IMG/VR virus record: IMGVR_UViG_2695420485_000005
Direction: 5' to 3' (one strand)
Length of the DNA stretch: 5,936 nucleotides
DNA from: a virus
Taxonomy: Duplodnaviria > Heunggongvirae > Uroviricota > Caudoviricetes
The position numbers and the translations under genes are program-made. The notes below the pieces were generated by a model that did not search any database, was not told the origin of the DNA, and was given only the letters and a program-made list of their open reading frames with translations. Shown piece by piece: positions 1-5,936 of this stretch (position 1 is the stretch's first letter; each line of letters starts with the position of its first letter).

Positions 1-34
1 CCTGGCACGGCTGGGACGGAAGTCGCTGTCGTTC

Positions 35-208
35 TCAAAATCGGTGGAGCTGCATGACAAAGTCATCGGGCATTATCTGAACATAAAACACTATCAATAA
101 GTTGGAGTCATTACCCACCCAGGCAAACTCTTTTAATTCATCGTCTTCTGTAAACTGGCTTTTGTCTTTTGACCACCAGTTTTCAAACTGTCGGTAGCTA
201 TCGTTCAC
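35..208 (-). CDS. Hypothetical small protein downstream of ren (about 57 aa from GTG at 206-208; the maximal ORF 35..223 would start at TTG)
   Basis: ORF track 35..223 (-). The first codon is TTG (rc of 221-223) and abuts the terminator T-tract, so I prefer the in-frame GTG (rc of 206-208), which has a G-rich Shine-Dalgarno-like stretch (GGGGGAG) about 6 nt upstream on the minus strand. I do not recognise the protein; coding status is uncertain. Confidence 0.3.
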
Positions 209-220
209 TTCCCTCTCCCC

Positions 221-253
221 CAAATAAAAAGGCCTGCGATTACCAGCAGGCCT
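221..253 (-). terminator. Rho-independent terminator downstream of ren (tR2-like position)
   Basis: Perfect 8-bp stem AGGCCTGC (230-237) / GCAGGCCT (246-253) with an 8-nt loop. On the minus strand the hairpin is followed by TTTTTATTTG (rc of 221-230). It sits just downstream of the ren stop, where lambda carries tR2. Confidence 0.55.
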
Positions 254-278
254 GTTACAAGCTCAGTGATGTAGATGG

Positions 279-569
279 TCATCTTTTAACTCCATATACC
301 GCCAATACCCGTTTCATCGCTGCACTCTGGCGACACTCCTTAAAAATCAGGTTCGTGCTCACCTTTCCTTCCCGTTCTTCCCTGGTAGCAAACCGGTAAT
401 ACACCGTTCGCCAGACCTTACCTTCGATAACCAGAAGACCTGCCCGTGCCATTTTAGCCGCGGCCTGATTTATGCTGGTTACTGTTGCGCCTGTTAGCGC
501 GGCAACGTCCGGCGCACAGAAGCTATTATGCGTCCCCAGGTAATGAATAATTGCCTCTTTGCCCGTCAT
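279..569 (-). CDS. ren: Ren protein (lambda ren homolog, 96 aa)
   Basis: The 96-aa product MTGKEAIIHYLGTHNSFCAPDVAALTGATV... matches lambda Ren almost residue for residue as I recall it. Its start overlaps the P stop (ATGA overlap at 566-569), as in lambda. Confidence 0.85.
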   Translation of the reverse strand: MTGKEAIIHYLGTHNSFCAPDVAALTGATVTSINQAAAKMARAGLLVIEGKVWRTVYYRFATREEREGKVSTNLIFKECRQSAAMKRVLAVYGVKR

Positions 570-1267
570 ACACTTGCTCCTTTCAGTCCGAACTTAGCTT
601 TAATTTCTGCGATCTTCGCCAGCGCCTGAACATGATTTAGAGGTCTGCCGCCCATGACAGGAAGTTGTTTTACTGGTTCAGGGATCACCTCACCACGATT
701 AATTCTCGCAGTCATATGGACAAGCTCATCTGCGGCCTTGCGCCGTAATTCCGCGTCAGTCAGCGCATTGGCCCGCATGTTCTGGTACAGGTTGGTAACC
801 AGCCAGTAGTGCGCGTTTGATTTCCACGGATAAGACTCTGCATCCGGATACAGGCCACGCTTCCGGCAATACTCGTAAACCATATCAACCAGCTCGCTGA
901 CGTTTGGCAGTCCGGCGATAACGGATGCTTCTTCCCGGCACCATGCAACAAACTGCCCGGGTGATGGAAGAAATGGTCGATTCTGCCGACGGGCTACGCG
1001 CATTCCTGCGTTAACCTGTTCCATTGTGGTGATCCCGTTTTCCCGGAAAGCCAGAACCCACTGGCGGCGGATTTCGTTCAGTTCGTTCTGGTCACGGTTA
1101 GCCAGGCTCGCCGGGAAAGTTGCCAGTAACTGGCTGAACACACCGTTGATGATCTGCGCTACCTGCTGTACCTGCGGCTTTTCGTCGTACTGTTCCGGCA
1201 TGTTGTTGGCGATCCGACGCATCTGCTCACGGTCAAAATTAACCATCTGTGCGGCGATGTTTTTCAT
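566..1267 (-). CDS. P: Replication protein P (DnaB helicase loader), 233 aa
   Basis: The 233-aa product MKNIAAQMVNFDREQMRRIANNMPEQYDEKPQV... has the same length and near-identical sequence to lambda P from memory. Its start overlaps the O stop (ATGA at 1264-1267). Confidence 0.95.
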   Translation of the reverse strand: MKNIAAQMVNFDREQMRRIANNMPEQYDEKPQVQQVAQIINGVFSQLLATFPASLANRDQNELNEIRRQWVLAFRENGITTMEQVNAGMRVARRQNRPFLPSPGQFVAWCREEASVIAGLPNVSELVDMVYEYCRKRGLYPDAESYPWKSNAHYWLVTNLYQNMRANALTDAELRRKAADELVHMTARINRGEVIPEPVKQLPVMGGRPLNHVQALAKIAEIKAKFGLKGASV

Positions 1268-2202
1268 AAATCCACCCCGTAAATCCAGTCAGTGTTTGTC
1301 AGGTCGAGTTTTGGTTTTCCGGCTGTCACGCCTGCCTGTTGCTTGTTACGGTTGATTTCGAGTTGGGTCCACTTGTCGCGGAGTTTGGCCGGACTTAGCA
1401 CGTTACCGGACCAGAAGTTGTCCTGGCATGCCCAGCGGAACAGCACGCACATGTCGCGGTGGTTACGTCCGTCACGTTCACGCATCAGGCGGATATCGTT
1501 AGCCCACCCTGCAAAATTCGGTTTTCTGGCTGATGGTGCGATGGTCTTCACCATGTCAAACATCCACTCTGCGGCGGTCAGGTCTTCTGCTGTTCCCCAC
1601 TTGCTGCCGCTCTGAATTGCAGCATCCGGTTTAACCACAGAAAGATCGTTTTCTGGCTGGTCAGAGGATTCGCCAGAATTCTCGGACGAATAATCTTTTC
1701 TTTTTTCTTTTGTAATAGTGTCTTTTGTGTCCCCCTGTTTTGAGGGATAGCAATCCCCTAATTTGAGGGATGTTTTATCCCTCGTTTTAGGGGATTTTCC
1801 CTCGTTTTGAGGGATGTCCCTCATTTTAGGGGAACCTCCCTCGTTTTGAGGGATGCACCATTCTGAGATGTTTTTATTTGGTCCAAACATGCCGCCTTGC
1901 TGCTTGATAATATTCATTCTGACGAGTTCTAACTTGGCTTCATTGCACCGTTTGACAGGTAACTTTGTAATCTCGCTAAGTTGAGAATCGGTGATTCTGT
2001 CCATTGGTTTATTCCACCCATAGGTTTTACGCAGAATGGCAAGCAGCACTTTAAACTGTCGCTTGGTCAGATCTGCGCCTGAATAAGCCTCAATCAGCAT
2101 ATTTGATAGTCTGGCGTAACCATCATCGAGATCTGCCACATTACGCTCCTGTCCGGCAAAGTTACTTCTGCCGAAGTTGAGTATTTTTGCTGTATTTGTC
2201 AT
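1264..2202 (-). CDS. O: Replication initiator protein O, 312 aa (lambda O is 299 aa); contains the origin iterons
   Basis: Product MTNTAKILNFGR...DWIYGVDL matches lambda O from memory. It carries an in-frame 13-aa tandem duplication in the linker (IPQNEGGSPKMRD / IPQNEGKSPKTRD) that corresponds to extra iterons. The iteron array and AT-rich segment lie inside the ORF as in lambda. Confidence 0.95.
   Translation of the reverse strand: MTNTAKILNFGRSNFAGQERNVADLDDGYARLSNMLIEAYSGADLTKRQFKVLLAILRKTYGWNKPMDRITDSQLSEITKLPVKRCNEAKLELVRMNIIKQQGGMFGPNKNISEWCIPQNEGGSPKMRDIPQNEGKSPKTRDKTSLKLGDCYPSKQGDTKDTITKEKRKDYSSENSGESSDQPENDLSVVKPDAAIQSGSKWGTAEDLTAAEWMFDMVKTIAPSARKPNFAGWANDIRLMRERDGRNHRDMCVLFRWACQDNFWSGNVLSPAKLRDKWTQLEINRNKQQAGVTAGKPKLDLTNTDWIYGVDL
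1684..1730. other. AT-rich DNA-unwinding segment of the replication origin
   Basis: The tract TAATCTTTTCTTTTTTCTTTTGTAATAGTGTCTTTTGTGT lies immediately downstream of the iterons in the O reading direction, the same arrangement as ori-lambda. Confidence 0.7.
1731..1853. repeat. ori iterons: six tandem O-binding repeats (consensus on the O-sense strand TCCCTCAAAACGAGGGA)
   Basis: Six copies at about 20-bp spacing: 1731-1748 CCCCCTGTTTTGAGGGAT, 1754-1770 ATCCCCTAATTTGAGGGA, 1777-1794 TCCCTCGTTTTAGGGGAT, 1798-1815 TCCCTCGTTTTGAGGGAT, 1817-1833 TCCCTCATTTTAGGGGA, 1837-1853 TCCCTCGTTTTGAGGGA. Each is an internally palindromic 17-18mer. Lambda has four. Confidence 0.85.
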
Positions 2203-2205
2203 AAT
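2178..2205 (+). promoter_or_regulatory. Candidate pO promoter for the oop antisense RNA
   Basis: -35-like TTGAGT (2178-2183), 16-bp spacer, -10 CATAAT (2200-2205). The -10 overlaps the O start codon on the opposite strand, as in lambda. Confidence 0.4.
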
Positions 2206-2211
2206 GACTCC

Positions 2212-2291
2212 TGTTGATAGATCCAGTAATGACCTCAGAATTCCATCTTGATTTGTTCAGAACGCTCGGTCTTGCACACCGGGCGTTTTTT
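2212..2291 (+). ncRNA. oop: oop-like antisense RNA (about 80 nt) complementary to the 3' end of cII
   Basis: A candidate promoter sits upstream and a strong intrinsic terminator ends at 2291. The transcript would overlap the last ~57 nt of cII (2235-2291) in antisense. Size and position match lambda oop (77 nt). Confidence 0.55.
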
Positions 2292-2534
2292 ATTGGTGAG
2301 TTCATCAAGCGCATACTTAAAAGCCCTGCTAATCGGACTGATGTCTGATGCCATTCCGAAAGCACACAAGACCGAAGCAATAAATCTCCAGTCCGTTCTG
2401 CTTATCTTCGATTCATGACAGCCAATCATCTTTGCCAGACCGCGCTGGGTAAGCGTTGACAGGTTGATGAGTAAATCAGTTTCAGCGCGATCAATTTCTC
2501 GCTGTGATAGTTTGCTGTAACTTGTTTGTTCCAT
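2235..2534 (-). CDS. cII: cII transcriptional activator (99 aa)
   Basis: The C-terminus ...LTNKKRPVCKTERSEQIKMEF matches the lambda cII C-terminus (TNKKRP..TERSEQIQMEF) from memory, while the N-terminal two thirds diverge. Position between cro and O is canonical. Confidence 0.9.
   Translation of the reverse strand: MEQTSYSKLSQREIDRAETDLLINLSTLTQRGLAKMIGCHESKISRTDWRFIASVLCAFGMASDISPISRAFKYALDELTNKKRPVCKTERSEQIKMEF
2262..2291 (+). terminator. Rho-independent terminator (t_oop)
   Basis: Stem ACGCTCGG (2262-2269) / CCGGGCGT (2279-2286) with one mismatch and a 9-nt loop, followed by TTTTT(T)ATT on the plus strand. It lies inside the cII 3' coding region on the opposite strand. Confidence 0.7.
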
Positions 2535-2550
2535 TTCTTAAGATTTCCAA
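2512..2550 (+). promoter_or_regulatory. Candidate pRE (cII-activated promoter) with a cII-box-like direct repeat
   Basis: TTGC-N6-TTGT (2512-2525; lambda cII site is TTGC-N6-TTGC) within the 5' end of cII on the opposite strand, oriented toward cro and cI as in lambda. The -10 is not clear. Confidence 0.35.
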
Positions 2551-2619
2551 TAGTGAATAGCTAGTTGAAAGGTATGCGTGGAAACGCATATGGCCTTAGT
2601 TGGTCAGATATATTGGGAC

Positions 2620-2665
2620 TCGCTTTGTCAGCGACGTAGGACGAATGTCCATTGTGAAAAGAGCG
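2620..2665 (-). promoter_or_regulatory. nutR: boxA (CGCTCTTTT) plus boxB hairpin (TCGCT-GACAA-AGCGA)
   Basis: On the minus strand, boxA CGCTCTTTT (rc of 2657-2665) begins 7 nt after the cro stop. boxB is a 5-bp stem with a GACAA loop (rc of 2620-2634), separated from boxA by a 22-nt spacer. The same CTACG-N-CGCTGACAAAGCG core recurs upstream of N. Confidence 0.6.
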
Positions 2666-2672
2666 GTGTTAC

Positions 2673-2906
2673 TTATGCAGCCGATGCTCTACGCGATACG
2701 AACACTAGGTTTTCCTTTTTCACAGGTTTATAACCCGTGAAATTACGAGTAGCTTCTTCGATTGCATTCGCTTTATCAGGGGAAGCTCTTCGAAATCCAT
2801 ATGCAATCTGGTCAAGATAGCCAACTGAAGTTTTCGCTAATGCGGCGAGTCGCTTCCATTCCTCACTAGAAGCCTCTTTTCGCCAGCGTAGTAGTTCATT
2901 ACTCAT
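2673..2906 (-). CDS. cro: Cro-like HTH repressor (77 aa), non-lambda
   Basis: Small protein with a helix-turn-helix-like segment (TSVGYLDQIAYGF), first gene leftward of the operator region and divergent from cI. Good SD (GGAGG, rc of 2911-2915) 5 nt before the ATG. Confidence 0.75.
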   Translation of the reverse strand: MSNELLRWRKEASSEEWKRLAALAKTSVGYLDQIAYGFRRASPDKANAIEEATRNFTGYKPVKKENLVFVSRRASAA

Positions 2907-2933
2907 TAGTGCCTCCGTTTATCACACAGAACA

Positions 2934-3003
2934 ACTTTACCATTTTGATAAATAATCCGCAATGTAAATTTATCATATTGCGTATTTATCCATTTGCTAA
3001 ATA
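2934..3003. promoter_or_regulatory. OR operator region with divergent pR / pRM (17-bp TTTAYC-N5-GATAAA-type sites)
   Basis: Between cro and cI. 17-bp near-palindromes: 2936-2952 TTTACCATTTTGATAAA and 2985-3001 TTTATCCATTTGCTAAA, plus a weaker site 2969-2985 TTTATCATATTGCGTAT. Candidate pR on the minus strand: -35 TTGCGG (rc of 2957-2962), 17-bp spacer, -10 TAAAGT (rc of 2934-2939). pRM could not be pinned down. Confidence 0.55.
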
Positions 3004-3019
3004 GAGGGAAAATTGTGAG

Positions 3020-3724
3020 ATGGAAAACAAAGATATTCGCAAATCGAATCTGGCGTTTTTGCTAGATGAGCATAAAAAAATCGCGGGTAACACTAATGCA
3101 AGCTTTGCCGATAAGCTTGGGGTTAGCCCTTCTCAACTCACGCAAGTCTCCGGTGAAAAAAGCACTCGAAACATAGGGGATAAACTAGCAAGAAAATTTG
3201 AAGCCGCGCTTGGGTTACCTAATGGGTGGCTTGATTTGGTACATGATGTAACACCAATTGCATCATGCTCAGATTCTTTAACTTTTGTCGGTCAGGTAAG
3301 AAAAGGGTTAGTGCGCGTGGTTGGTGAGGCAATTCTTGGTGTTGATGGTGCCATCGAGATGACCGAAGAGCGCGATGGGTGGCTCAAAATTTATAGCGAT
3401 GATCCAGATGCCTTTGGTCTTCGTGTGAAAGGAGACAGCATGTGGCCCAGAATAAAATCAGGAGAATATGTACTCATTGAGCCTAACACCAAAGTATTCC
3501 CGGGTGATGAGGTGTTTGTCAGAACCGTTGAAGGACACAACATGATTAAGGTTCTTGGCTATGACAGAGATGGAGAATACCAATTTACAAGCATTAACCA
3601 GGATCACAGGCCTATAACGTTGCCTTATCATCAAGTAGCAAAGGTGGAGTATGTAGCTGGTATTCTGAAGCAATCTCGCCATCTGGATGACATCGAGGCA
3701 AGGGAGTGGCTGAAAAGTTCGTGA
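3020..3724 (+). CDS. cI: cI-type prophage repressor (234 aa): N-terminal HTH plus C-terminal LexA-like S24 autopeptidase domain
   Basis: N-terminus has an HTH-like segment (SFADKLGVSPSQLTQVSG). C-terminal domain has the Ser/Lys dyad context typical of LexA/cI (GDSMWP ... NMIKVL). Divergent from cro across the operators; SD AGAGGGA upstream. Confidence 0.9.
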   Translation: MENKDIRKSNLAFLLDEHKKIAGNTNASFADKLGVSPSQLTQVSGEKSTRNIGDKLARKFEAALGLPNGWLDLVHDVTPIASCSDSLTFVGQVRKGLVRVVGEAILGVDGAIEMTEERDGWLKIYSDDPDAFGLRVKGDSMWPRIKSGEYVLIEPNTKVFPGDEVFVRTVEGHNMIKVLGYDRDGEYQFTSINQDHRPITLPYHQVAKVEYVAGILKQSRHLDDIEAREWLKSS

Positions 3725-3784
3725 CTTCATCGTCACATAGCTGGTAACCAGTGGCCAGAAGAAACGTTTGGGTGAGGAGGATAG

Positions 3785-4126
3785 ATGGCGTTCACTGACC
3801 TTGAATATCAAGCGGTCAAAAAAGAAGTTCACCAATTCATTGAAAGCATAAGGCCGCCTGAACATATCCGCAATGAACTGGATATTGTTTATAGCATCAA
3901 TGACCAAACGATAGATATCGGCGAACAGCGCCCCGTGTGGCAGGGCAACCCAGGTGAAACAAACATCCTGCCATCAGCAAGAATCAAGTACATACGTTCT
4001 CTGGATAGATGGAAAATCTATTGGATGCGGAAGGATATGAAATGGCATCAGTACAGTACTGAACTTTCGCTGACTGATGCGCTTGAGCTTGTGCGTGCTG
4101 ACCCGGATTGCTGCTTCTTCGGATGA
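3785..4126 (+). CDS. Hypothetical protein (113 aa), first gene of the cargo cassette downstream of cI
   Basis: SD GAGGAGG (3774-3780) 4 nt upstream of the ATG. Same strand as cI, 60 bp after the cI stop. No motif I can assign; ends in ...DPDCCFFG. Confidence 0.6.
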   Translation: MAFTDLEYQAVKKEVHQFIESIRPPEHIRNELDIVYSINDQTIDIGEQRPVWQGNPGETNILPSARIKYIRSLDRWKIYWMRKDMKWHQYSTELSLTDALELVRADPDCCFFG

Positions 4127-4196
4127 GTGAAGAGACGTTTGGATGATGGATGATCGCAGAGATGCTCGTAGAGCATACAGCGATGCAGGAGAATTT

Positions 4197-4631
4197 ATGG
4201 CACTTAATTTAGAAAGAATATCTTTTATAACCCCATTTGATAGCAGCGAAGAACCCAACCAACCGACGCTTAATTTTACATGCAATGAATTTCCTGCGCG
4301 GCTATCAATTGATTTCAGGGTTGGTATGATCGGGTTGAAACCAAATTCAAGATATAATTTGGGTATTATGGTAATCCCCGCGCACCTAATTATAAAAAAA
4401 GGTGAGGAAATTCAATTCCCTGACGGCTCTTCGGAATCAGTTTCACTTTTCATCGATACGAAAGATAGCCATTTTGAAACAGGGGTTGGCGGACAGGTAA
4501 TAGTAACATTGAAAGAAATTAGGGTCCCAGCTAAAGGGCTGTATAGTGTTATAGGGATATTGCAAGATAATGAAGACCCTAAAAATGAACTTCATAAAAA
4601 TGAATCATTTTTCACCGTAGAGCTATTATGA
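4197..4631 (+). CDS. Hypothetical protein (145 aa from ATG 4197; maximal ORF from 4143 = 162 aa), AT-rich, translationally coupled to the downstream gene
   Basis: The in-frame ATG at 4197 has a good SD (AGGAG 4187-4191, 5-nt spacer), whereas the ATG at 4143 has none, so I prefer 4197. The stop overlaps the next start (ATGA at 4628-4631). The region is visibly AT-rich compared with the flanking phage genes. Confidence 0.55.
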   Translation: MALNLERISFITPFDSSEEPNQPTLNFTCNEFPARLSIDFRVGMIGLKPNSRYNLGIMVIPAHLIIKKGEEIQFPDGSSESVSLFIDTKDSHFETGVGGQVIVTLKEIRVPAKGLYSVIGILQDNEDPKNELHKNESFFTVELL

Positions 4632-5248
4632 GTGACGACAGTAATTTAAATAATCATGGAAAGCAAGACACCAACATATCTGAAAGCCGGAGGTTGAAGG
4701 TTGTTGGCGGTTCCGATTTTGAGGCTGAATTTGATAATTCTCCCACCAAGGTGCAAAATAATTACATAAAACCGCCACAAACGGAGGAAGAAGTGGGAAC
4801 GATCAGCAGAGAGGAACTTGATGCTCGCTTAGCTGCTAATAAAGCAGAGATGGAGTCTATTGCTTCTTCCATTAGGGCTGACATGGCTCTATCTCGTGAA
4901 AGCGTTAATGTCCAATTTGCATCACTTAATGCAGCCATAAGCTCTCTATCGTCCAAGATCGATGGAAAGATGGATAGCGCTGCTGGCGATATAAAAGCAA
5001 TTAATGGGAGATTCGAAGGAATTCAAGGACAAATAACAGGGGTTAATACCGCAATTAGTGGTGTTCAGTCGGGTATTTCTATACGATTAGCCATTTTTAG
5101 TGTCATTATCGCTGTAATAGTTGCGATTCCCGGGCTGGTATCAGCTTTAAAGTCAGACCACGTACCTTTGCAACAGCCTTCCACTTTGCAAGCGCCGCCA
5201 CAAAATACCCAGCCAACAGACAACAAAAAAATCACTCCCCAGCATTAA
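4628..5248 (+). CDS. Hypothetical tail-anchored membrane protein (206 aa): cytoplasmic coiled-coil/repeat region, single C-terminal TM helix, Pro/Gln-rich tail
   Basis: Hydrophobic stretch LAIFSVIIAVIVAIPGLVSAL near the C-terminus. The preceding region shows an ~11-residue periodicity (GDIKAINGRFE / GIQGQITGVNT / AISGVQSGISI). C-terminal tail is PLQQPSTLQAPPQNTQPTDNKKITPQH. No signal peptide. Confidence 0.6.
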   Translation: MSDDSNLNNHGKQDTNISESRRLKVVGGSDFEAEFDNSPTKVQNNYIKPPQTEEEVGTISREELDARLAANKAEMESIASSIRADMALSRESVNVQFASLNAAISSLSSKIDGKMDSAAGDIKAINGRFEGIQGQITGVNTAISGVQSGISIRLAIFSVIIAVIVAIPGLVSALKSDHVPLQQPSTLQAPPQNTQPTDNKKITPQH

Positions 5249-5256
5249 CGCATTAA

Positions 5257-5282
5257 CCCGGCCTCAGCGCCGGGTTTTCTTT
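5257..5282 (+). terminator. Rho-independent terminator ending the cI/cargo operon (tIMM-like)
   Basis: Stem CCCGGC (5257-5262) / GCCGGG (5269-5274), 6-nt loop, followed by TTTTCTTTG. It lies 9 nt after the stop of the 206-aa gene. Confidence 0.7.
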
Positions 5283-5462
5283 GCCTCACGATCCCCACAC
5301 CTAAAAACACATAACCAATTGTATTTGTTGAAAAATAAATAGATACAACTTGCTAAACAACGCAATCCAGATCTCCCTCAAATCTCTTTATTTATCCTGT
5401 CGAATTCCTACAACAAAATAAAACACCATAAGAATCAATACGATATTTGAAAACCAAGAGAA

Positions 5463-5505
5463 TTTATCATTTTGCTATTGTCATTAATTTATCATTCCGA
5501 TAAAG
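5463..5505 (+). promoter_or_regulatory. OL operators with candidate pL
   Basis: A perfect 17-bp palindrome TTTATCATTCCGATAAA (5488-5504) and an adjacent site TTTATCATTTTGCTATT (5463-5479) 25 bp apart share the half-site used in OR. Candidate pL: -35 TTGTCA (5478-5483) with a poor -10 (ATAAAG/GATAAA, 5499-5505), oriented toward N. Confidence 0.5.
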
Positions 5506-5574
5506 TTCACCCATCAGCAGGACGCACTACTCACCAGGGCGGTGAATATACAACGATTCGAATATGAATCTACG

Positions 5575-5589
5575 GCGCTGACAAAGCGC
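5575..5589 (+). promoter_or_regulatory. nutL boxB hairpin (GCGCT-GACAA-AGCGC)
   Basis: 5-bp stem with a GACAA loop, preceded by CTACG exactly as in nutR. It lies in the leader between the putative pL and N. No convincing boxA was found upstream (best is a weak CGCACTACT at 5523-5531). Confidence 0.6.
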
Positions 5590-5754
5590 AATAACCAAAG
5601 TGAACTTTGGGGTGTGGTGAAGGGTTCATGGACGGGAATATGTCGCACGTAAAGCGGCGAGGCCTGCGGGACTATTGCCGAATTGAAGTAGGCCGAAACA
5701 GGTCGAAATGGGTCTCCCACCTACCACACCACCAAAGTTCATCAGGAGGTCTAT

Positions 5755-5936
5755 ATGACACGCAGAACTCAGTTCAAAGGCAATTCACGTTCTCGTCGTC
5801 GTGAGCGTTTAAAGGCAAAGGCATTAGCTAACGGCGTACTGGCCCGCGAAGAAGCAATAAGTTCAGAAGTATTACACCGCCCTACTCTAAGCAGAGCGCA
5901 GATTCAGGCTAAAGGTACTCACGAAACGCCTGAGCG
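5755..5936 (+). CDS. N: N-type transcription antitermination protein, 5' portion (runs off the window end)
   Basis: ATG at 5755 with SD AGGAGG (5744-5749). The translation MTRRTQFKGNSRSRRRERLKAKALANGVLAREE... has an arginine-rich motif near the N-terminus as in N proteins, and I recall this N-terminus from Stx-phage (H-19B/933W-type) N. The open frame continues to the window end. Not in the ORF track because there is no stop in the window. Confidence 0.8.
   Translation, partial: MTRRTQFKGNSRSRRRERLKAKALANGVLAREEAISSEVLHRPTLSRAQIQAKGTHETPE

Follow-up and report, generated by a model that had tools for sequence, protein, structure and literature searches.

The closest known relatives of the origin reported here are those of Shiga toxin-converting (Stx) phages and of lambda. 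Kozlowska et al. 2020 (PMC7466680) described six iterons in Stx phages, designated 1, 1', 1'', 2, 3*, and 4 (3* being their name for the third canonical iteron), versus four in lambda, and 13 additional residues in the Stx phage O proteins. That paper cites Nejman et al. 2009, 2011 and Kozlowska et al. 2017. High Shiga toxin output requires replication of the Stx phage, and the origin has hence been studied as a possible target (PMC7466680); because of this interest, the six-iteron arrangement has already been annotated and characterized. In the GenBank record of 933W (AF125520 / NC_000924), "ori iteron 1" to "ori iteron 6" are annotated as protein O binding sites. Lambda (J02459, iterons at 39034-39118) has four iterons and an O protein of 299 aa, without the 39-nt unit described below.

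We analyzed a 5,936-nt stretch of DNA (the window), which spans, in reverse orientation, the part of a lambdoid prophage that governs immunity and replication (Table 1). Both O and P are open throughout, the P frame overlapping the end of O by 4 nt. The O protein has an N-terminal Phage_rep_O domain (PF04492, residues 22-115, E=1e-35) and the P frame follows it, the organization of a lambda-type O/P module.

Table 1. Features of the window, with coordinates counted from its first base.
Feature	Position	Strand	Remarks
IS1 element, terminal 115 bases	1-115		100% identical to IS1A/IS1B copies in >5,000 plasmids
ren	279-569	minus	
Gene P, 233 aa, helicase loader partner of O	566-1267	minus	ORF list; matching records annotate replication protein P
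Gene O, replication initiator, 312 aa, origin inside	1264-2202	minus	ORF list; DNA match to 933W O; Pfam Phage_rep_O
AT-rich tract, presumed unwinding site	1684-1730 (approx.)	minus	Purine-rich on the O-coding strand
Iteron 4, ATCCCTCAAAACAGGGGG	1731-1748	minus	Adjoins the AT-rich tract; centre 23 nt from iteron 3*
Iteron 3*, ATCCCTCAAATTAGGGGA	1754-1771	minus	A versus lambda G; centre 24 nt from iteron 2
Iteron 2, ATCCCCTAAAACGAGGGA	1778-1795	minus	Centre 20 nt from iteron 1''
Iteron 1'', ATCCCTCAAAACGAGGGA	1798-1815	minus	Centre 19 nt from iteron 1'
Iteron 1', TTCCCCTAAAATGAGGGA	1817-1834	minus	Extra versus lambda; centre 20 nt from iteron 1
Iteron 1, ATCCCTCAAAACGAGGGA	1837-1854	minus	Farthest from the AT-rich tract; same sequence as iteron 1''
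Tandem 39-nt duplication, units 1817-1855 and 1778-1816	1778-1855	minus	Tandem Repeats Finder, alignments
cII	2235-2534	minus	
cro-like gene	2673-2906	minus	
cI repressor with Peptidase_S24 domain	3020-3724	plus	
DUF3024 protein ORF, after cI	3785-4126	plus	
162-aa ORF, after cI	4143-4631	plus	
206-aa ORF, hydrophobic C-terminal stretch	4628-5248	plus	Pfam hit sub-threshold only
N, start only	from 5756	plus	

The motif TCCCYYAAAWYRRGGG has six exact matches on the minus strand (1732-1747, 1755-1770, 1779-1794, 1799-1814, 1818-1833, and 1838-1853), and none is expected by chance, based on 200 shuffles. To these we transferred the 18-bp iteron coordinates annotated in 933W, which gave six iterons spanning 1731-1854 within O. 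Each has dyad symmetry at 6 to 12 of its 16 core positions, and this array of imperfect palindromes lies inside the initiator gene, as in a lambda-type origin. As is also typical of that type, an AT-rich tract lies directly downstream of the last iteron, with an A+T content of 72% over 1684-1730 and 78% over 1690-1730, compared to 54% for the window overall. The initial annotation had placed an origin with six iterons, instead of the four of lambda, inside O, and our motif matches and alignments agree with it; the range it gave, 1684-1853, covers the AT-rich tract and the iterons and ends one base short, at 1853 instead of 1854.

We aligned positions 1640-1900 of the window (minus strand) with 933W and lambda. 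All 261 positions around the 933W origin are identical to the window, and the order of the iterons (1, 1', 1'', 2, 3*, 4), including the extra 39-nt unit, is thus the same base for base. The lambda origin aligns with a single 39-nt gap and 3 substitutions (222 aligned bases in 261 columns); one of the substitutions is the G in iteron 3 of lambda that is A in the window. The AT-rich tract is identical in 933W and differs from that of lambda by one base. Comparison with lambda and a Stx phage had been proposed as a check on whether the additional repeats are degenerate, and by these alignments they are not. It is very likely that the window carries the origin of a lambda-type O/P module, in the allele of 933W, H-19B, and P27, within a lambdoid prophage from E. 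coli or a closely related host, and that its distal iterons are auxiliary sites.

The excess over lambda is one 39-nt unit, in frame; it accounts for two iterons and for the peptide IPQNEGGSPKMRD. At 1778-1855, Tandem Repeats Finder reported 2.0 copies of a repeat with period 39 and 89% matches, and a separate repeat search agreed. The two units have 35 of 39 bases in common; two of the four differences are in the spacer (GG versus AA), and the other two affect iteron 1', at its outermost and its central base. The differences leave the C- and G-tracts in the palindrome arms untouched. Iteron 1' is nearest to iteron 2 (16 of 18 positions) and further from iteron 1. We infer that the array probably arose by tandem duplication of a unit of iterons 1 and 2, followed by slight divergence. 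By sequence, the extra copies are equal in quality to the canonical four. The idea that they are degenerate and nonfunctional was rejected on these grounds, and published work reports weak occupancy but a genetic requirement for them (PMC7466680).

The origin is part of a coding sequence, and the duplication therefore makes O 13 residues longer as well. The DNA and protein alignments bear out the proposal that the extra iterons are translated in frame into 13 duplicated residues, for a total of 312 aa versus 299 aa in O. The inserted codons (aa 117-129) map to 1816-1854, and in the protein alignment with lambda the insert immediately precedes IPQNEGKSPKTRD. No solved relative of O turned up in a sequence search of the Protein Data Bank, and the place of the insert in the structure is therefore taken from the Pfam domain boundary: it begins two residues past the end (residue 115) of Phage_rep_O, the conserved DNA-binding domain.

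A six-copy array in a short tandem repeat carries the general risk of an assembly or sequencing artefact. We consider that explanation hardly credible here. The identical array occurs in the independently sequenced 933W, H-19B, P27, and many Stx1a/Stx2a phages; the O frame stays open; and differences at 4 of 39 positions argue against collapse or expansion of an identical repeat. The six-iteron junction, searched as a 95-nt query with records counted at 80% coverage or more, is present in 72 phage records, those listed including H-19B, P27, 933W, and many phages named as Stx converting, and in 363 of 5,426 complete E. coli genomes (about 7%), compared to 1,134 with the four-iteron junction; these genome counts are approximate, as the 80% cutoff barely separates the forms and one genome may hold both. 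Based on this distribution, we rejected an artefact. The initial annotation had linked six-iteron origins to Shiga toxin phages, and this link is correct, given the 933W annotation, the presence of the allele in H-19B, P27, and dozens of Stx1a/Stx2a phages, and the published description (PMC7466680).

We extended the survey to GenBank phage records and IMG/VR. The O gene matched 171 phage records, and in 126 the match covered 80% or more of the gene length; the top hits, at 99.6%, were 933W, Stx2 phage I, PA28, and many Stx1a phages. The other 58 matching phage records, including lambda, 434, and DE3, have the four-iteron form only. At least 120 IMG/VR contigs have the left flank of the array, and the 120 listed made up our sample, which is not random. 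The 86-nt four-iteron array was found in 90 of 120 and the 125-nt six-iteron array in 22 of 120, and the array lengths in the sample were 19, 59, 86, 109, and 125 nt. The 13-aa insert occurs in this sample on several O backgrounds (Gly, Glu, or Lys at residue 17; Leu or Ile at residue 37), which points to recombination within O or repeated gain. From these sequences, the six-iteron allele is common and appears to recombine onto different O backgrounds.

Arrays of unusual length were rare. One contig (L105; minus strand, array beginning 29 nt after 464) has a 109-nt array in which a 23-nt duplication of iteron 3 and spacer gives five iterons; as its length is not divisible by three, this duplication shifts the O reading frame. 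Another (L063, after 7882, plus strand) has a 19-nt array with one hybrid iteron 1/4, and in a third (L038, after 7124, minus strand) the six-iteron form has given rise to an array of 59 nt with three iterons. Judging by such rare length variants, the iteron array is evidently prone to unequal recombination. Two further contigs depart from O within the array: O turns into unrelated sequence within iteron 2 in one (L092, left flank 10193, minus strand) and within iteron 4 in the other (L031, left flank 5815). Their sequences suggest that mosaic recombination joints or deletions may end at iterons.

This variability bears on whether the two extra iterons matter. They could be a neutral length polymorphism, generated by unequal crossover or slippage, in frame and harmless, with four iterons doing all the work. 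The range of natural array lengths fits this view, and the occurrence of the insert on several O backgrounds is as expected for a freely recombining segment. Binding experiments also fit: single iterons each bind O in isolation, while DMS footprints on the whole origin showed strong protection of only the four AT-proximal iterons (PMC7466680). In addition, PMC7466680 cites Moore et al. 1981 for normal growth of lambda with three iterons, and other work for a need of just two or three. However, synonymous disruption of iteron 1 or 1' reduced transformation by a P27-derived plasmid from ~5x10^4 to <10 per microgram (PMC7466680, Table 2). Natural arrays are conserved at the same sites: among the 24 six-type arrays in the IMG/VR sample, variation was mostly in spacers and only 2 were altered inside an iteron. 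Iteron 1' was unchanged in 23 of 24 and iteron 1 in all 24, while the adjacent spacers vary. We therefore regard neutrality as unlikely.

A second possibility is that the protein change is what matters, with the 13-residue insert lengthening a linker and loosening the packing of the O-some, and the extra DNA sites incidental. The start of the insert just beyond Phage_rep_O is consistent with such a linker. The authors of PMC7466680 likewise propose a spacer role for the extra residues, which would make the O-some less tightly packed. Relative to lambda O, the Stx O proteins show weaker binding and are less prone to forming higher-order complexes, even when the template is the lambda origin with its four iterons (PMC7466680). 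Two points weigh against this reading. Plasmid establishment was abolished by iteron mutations that are silent at the level of the O amino acid sequence, and the Stx O proteins tested also carry point substitutions relative to lambda, from which the effect of the insert was not separated (PMC7466680). The synonymous-mutation result thus weakens this explanation as well as neutrality, and we judge it improbable that the linker is the whole account; it is nevertheless compatible with an auxiliary role for the distal iterons, and the two are not mutually exclusive.

The preferred reading, with iterons 1 and 1' as auxiliary sites, would work as follows. Transcription from pR would pass cro, cII, and then O on the minus strand. 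O dimers would bind the 18-19-bp imperfect palindromes inside the O gene, with iterons 1'', 2, 3*, and 4 (1731-1815) as the high-occupancy sites on which the O-some is built. The O-some would bend the DNA and destabilize the AT-rich tract (~1684-1730), where P would deliver the host DnaB helicase to the opened strands. Iterons 1 and 1' (1817-1854), derived from the 39-nt duplication, would be low-occupancy auxiliary sites that raise the local concentration of O or stabilize the O-some of a weaker-binding O, as the authors of PMC7466680 proposed for the extra iterons. The hierarchy of binding, and the dependence of the P27-derived plasmid on iterons 1 and 1', were shown in vitro and with plasmids for the 933W and P27 origins, whose sequences are identical to that of the window (PMC7466680), and would presumably apply to the copy in the window. 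By that published analysis, the extra copies, which are not degenerate, would be weakly bound in vitro on the whole origin yet needed for plasmid establishment.

The O protein of the window has Ser13, Gly17 (codons at 2152-2166, minus strand), Ile37, and Gly295. Gly17 is the lambda residue, where 933W and P27 have Glu17, while Ile37 and Gly295 are as in 933W; the window thus pairs a lambda-like residue 17 with the Stx-type insert. Ser13 was found in none of ~110 O proteins translated from the sampled IMG/VR contigs, and none of the 120 IMG/VR contigs listed encodes an O protein identical to that of the window. Given these differences from the tested alleles at residues 13 and 17, its affinity may differ from theirs. 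More speculatively, an allele that combines six iterons, the insert, Gly17, and Ser13 could separate the effects of insert and iterons on O-some strength from those of point substitutions. More broadly, the requirement for distal iterons might act via something other than O occupancy, for instance DNA structure or a host factor, which would make iteron number a naturally variable replication setting in lambdoid prophages. We think this improbable.

The closest relative among the matches is a prophage of E. coli O55:H7 USDA5905 (L123), 99.5% identical over window positions 116-5936, which encodes a 312-aa O and has the six-iteron array. In Stx phages, stx lies in the interval between Q and the lysis genes. 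The window stops short of the Q-stx region, and in the USDA5905 prophage no stx gene is annotated in the interval from Q to the lysis genes. A six-iteron origin is present in this prophage without annotated stx, and therefore stx carriage is an association, not a requirement: the six-iteron allele is associated with Stx phages, and it is neither diagnostic of them nor restricted to prophages with annotated stx. Conversely, some Stx phages use no O/P module at all (PMC8044961). Just past the region corresponding to the end of the window (5936), downstream of the N start, the USDA5905 annotation has only a 69-nt pseudogene, "regulator, incomplete" (7455-7523), and N is not annotated as intact; N is either disrupted there or was missed by the annotation pipeline.

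Two other parts of the window are of note. At its start, IS1 is inserted 163 nt downstream of ren, where it breaks a small hypothetical gene; the closest relative (L123 1315-1593) and 933W (L0091) both have this gene uninterrupted. Among the best-matching E. coli prophages listed, no alignment crosses the IS1/prophage junction, and matches begin at position 116 or later. The insertion suggests that the prophage is possibly decaying, and the origin may therefore not be in active use. After cI, three ORFs (3785-5248) occupy the position of rexA/rexB in lambda and are candidates for exclusion or defense genes expressed in the lysogen. A Pfam scan of the 162-aa ORF gave no match. A terminator-like hairpin followed by a T-run (~5255-5285) lies after the three ORFs.

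The six-iteron origin with its 13-aa insert is real, ordinary, and already known, from the 933W annotation and from experiments. Work on plasmids with altered extra iterons, essentially the comparison suggested by the initial annotation, is already published (PMC7466680). As one further copy, the window offers nothing new in principle; its value lies in a correct annotation and a small survey, whose additions are minor: several O backgrounds, a prophage without annotated stx, and rare one-, three-, and five-iteron variants.

Among described phages, 933W has the same gene order as the window, cII-O-P-ren, and likewise a 312-aa O with the 13-aa insert. The two O genes are 99.6% identical, with four nucleotide differences, all outside the ori region, and 933W has Gly13 and Glu17 where the window has Ser13 and Gly17. 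The phages differ more widely elsewhere: the 933W immunity region and its genes from cI to N are unlike those of the window, the genes after cI are another set that includes a Ser/Thr kinase, and IS1 downstream of ren is found in the window. H-19B, P27, and many Stx1a/Stx2a phages have the same six-iteron allele as 933W and the window. Outside the insert, the lambda O protein is 99% identical to that of the window, and the 933W O protein is likewise 99% identical. The lambda origin resembles that of the window in lying within O, in the sequence of its iterons, in its AT-rich tract, and in its flanks.
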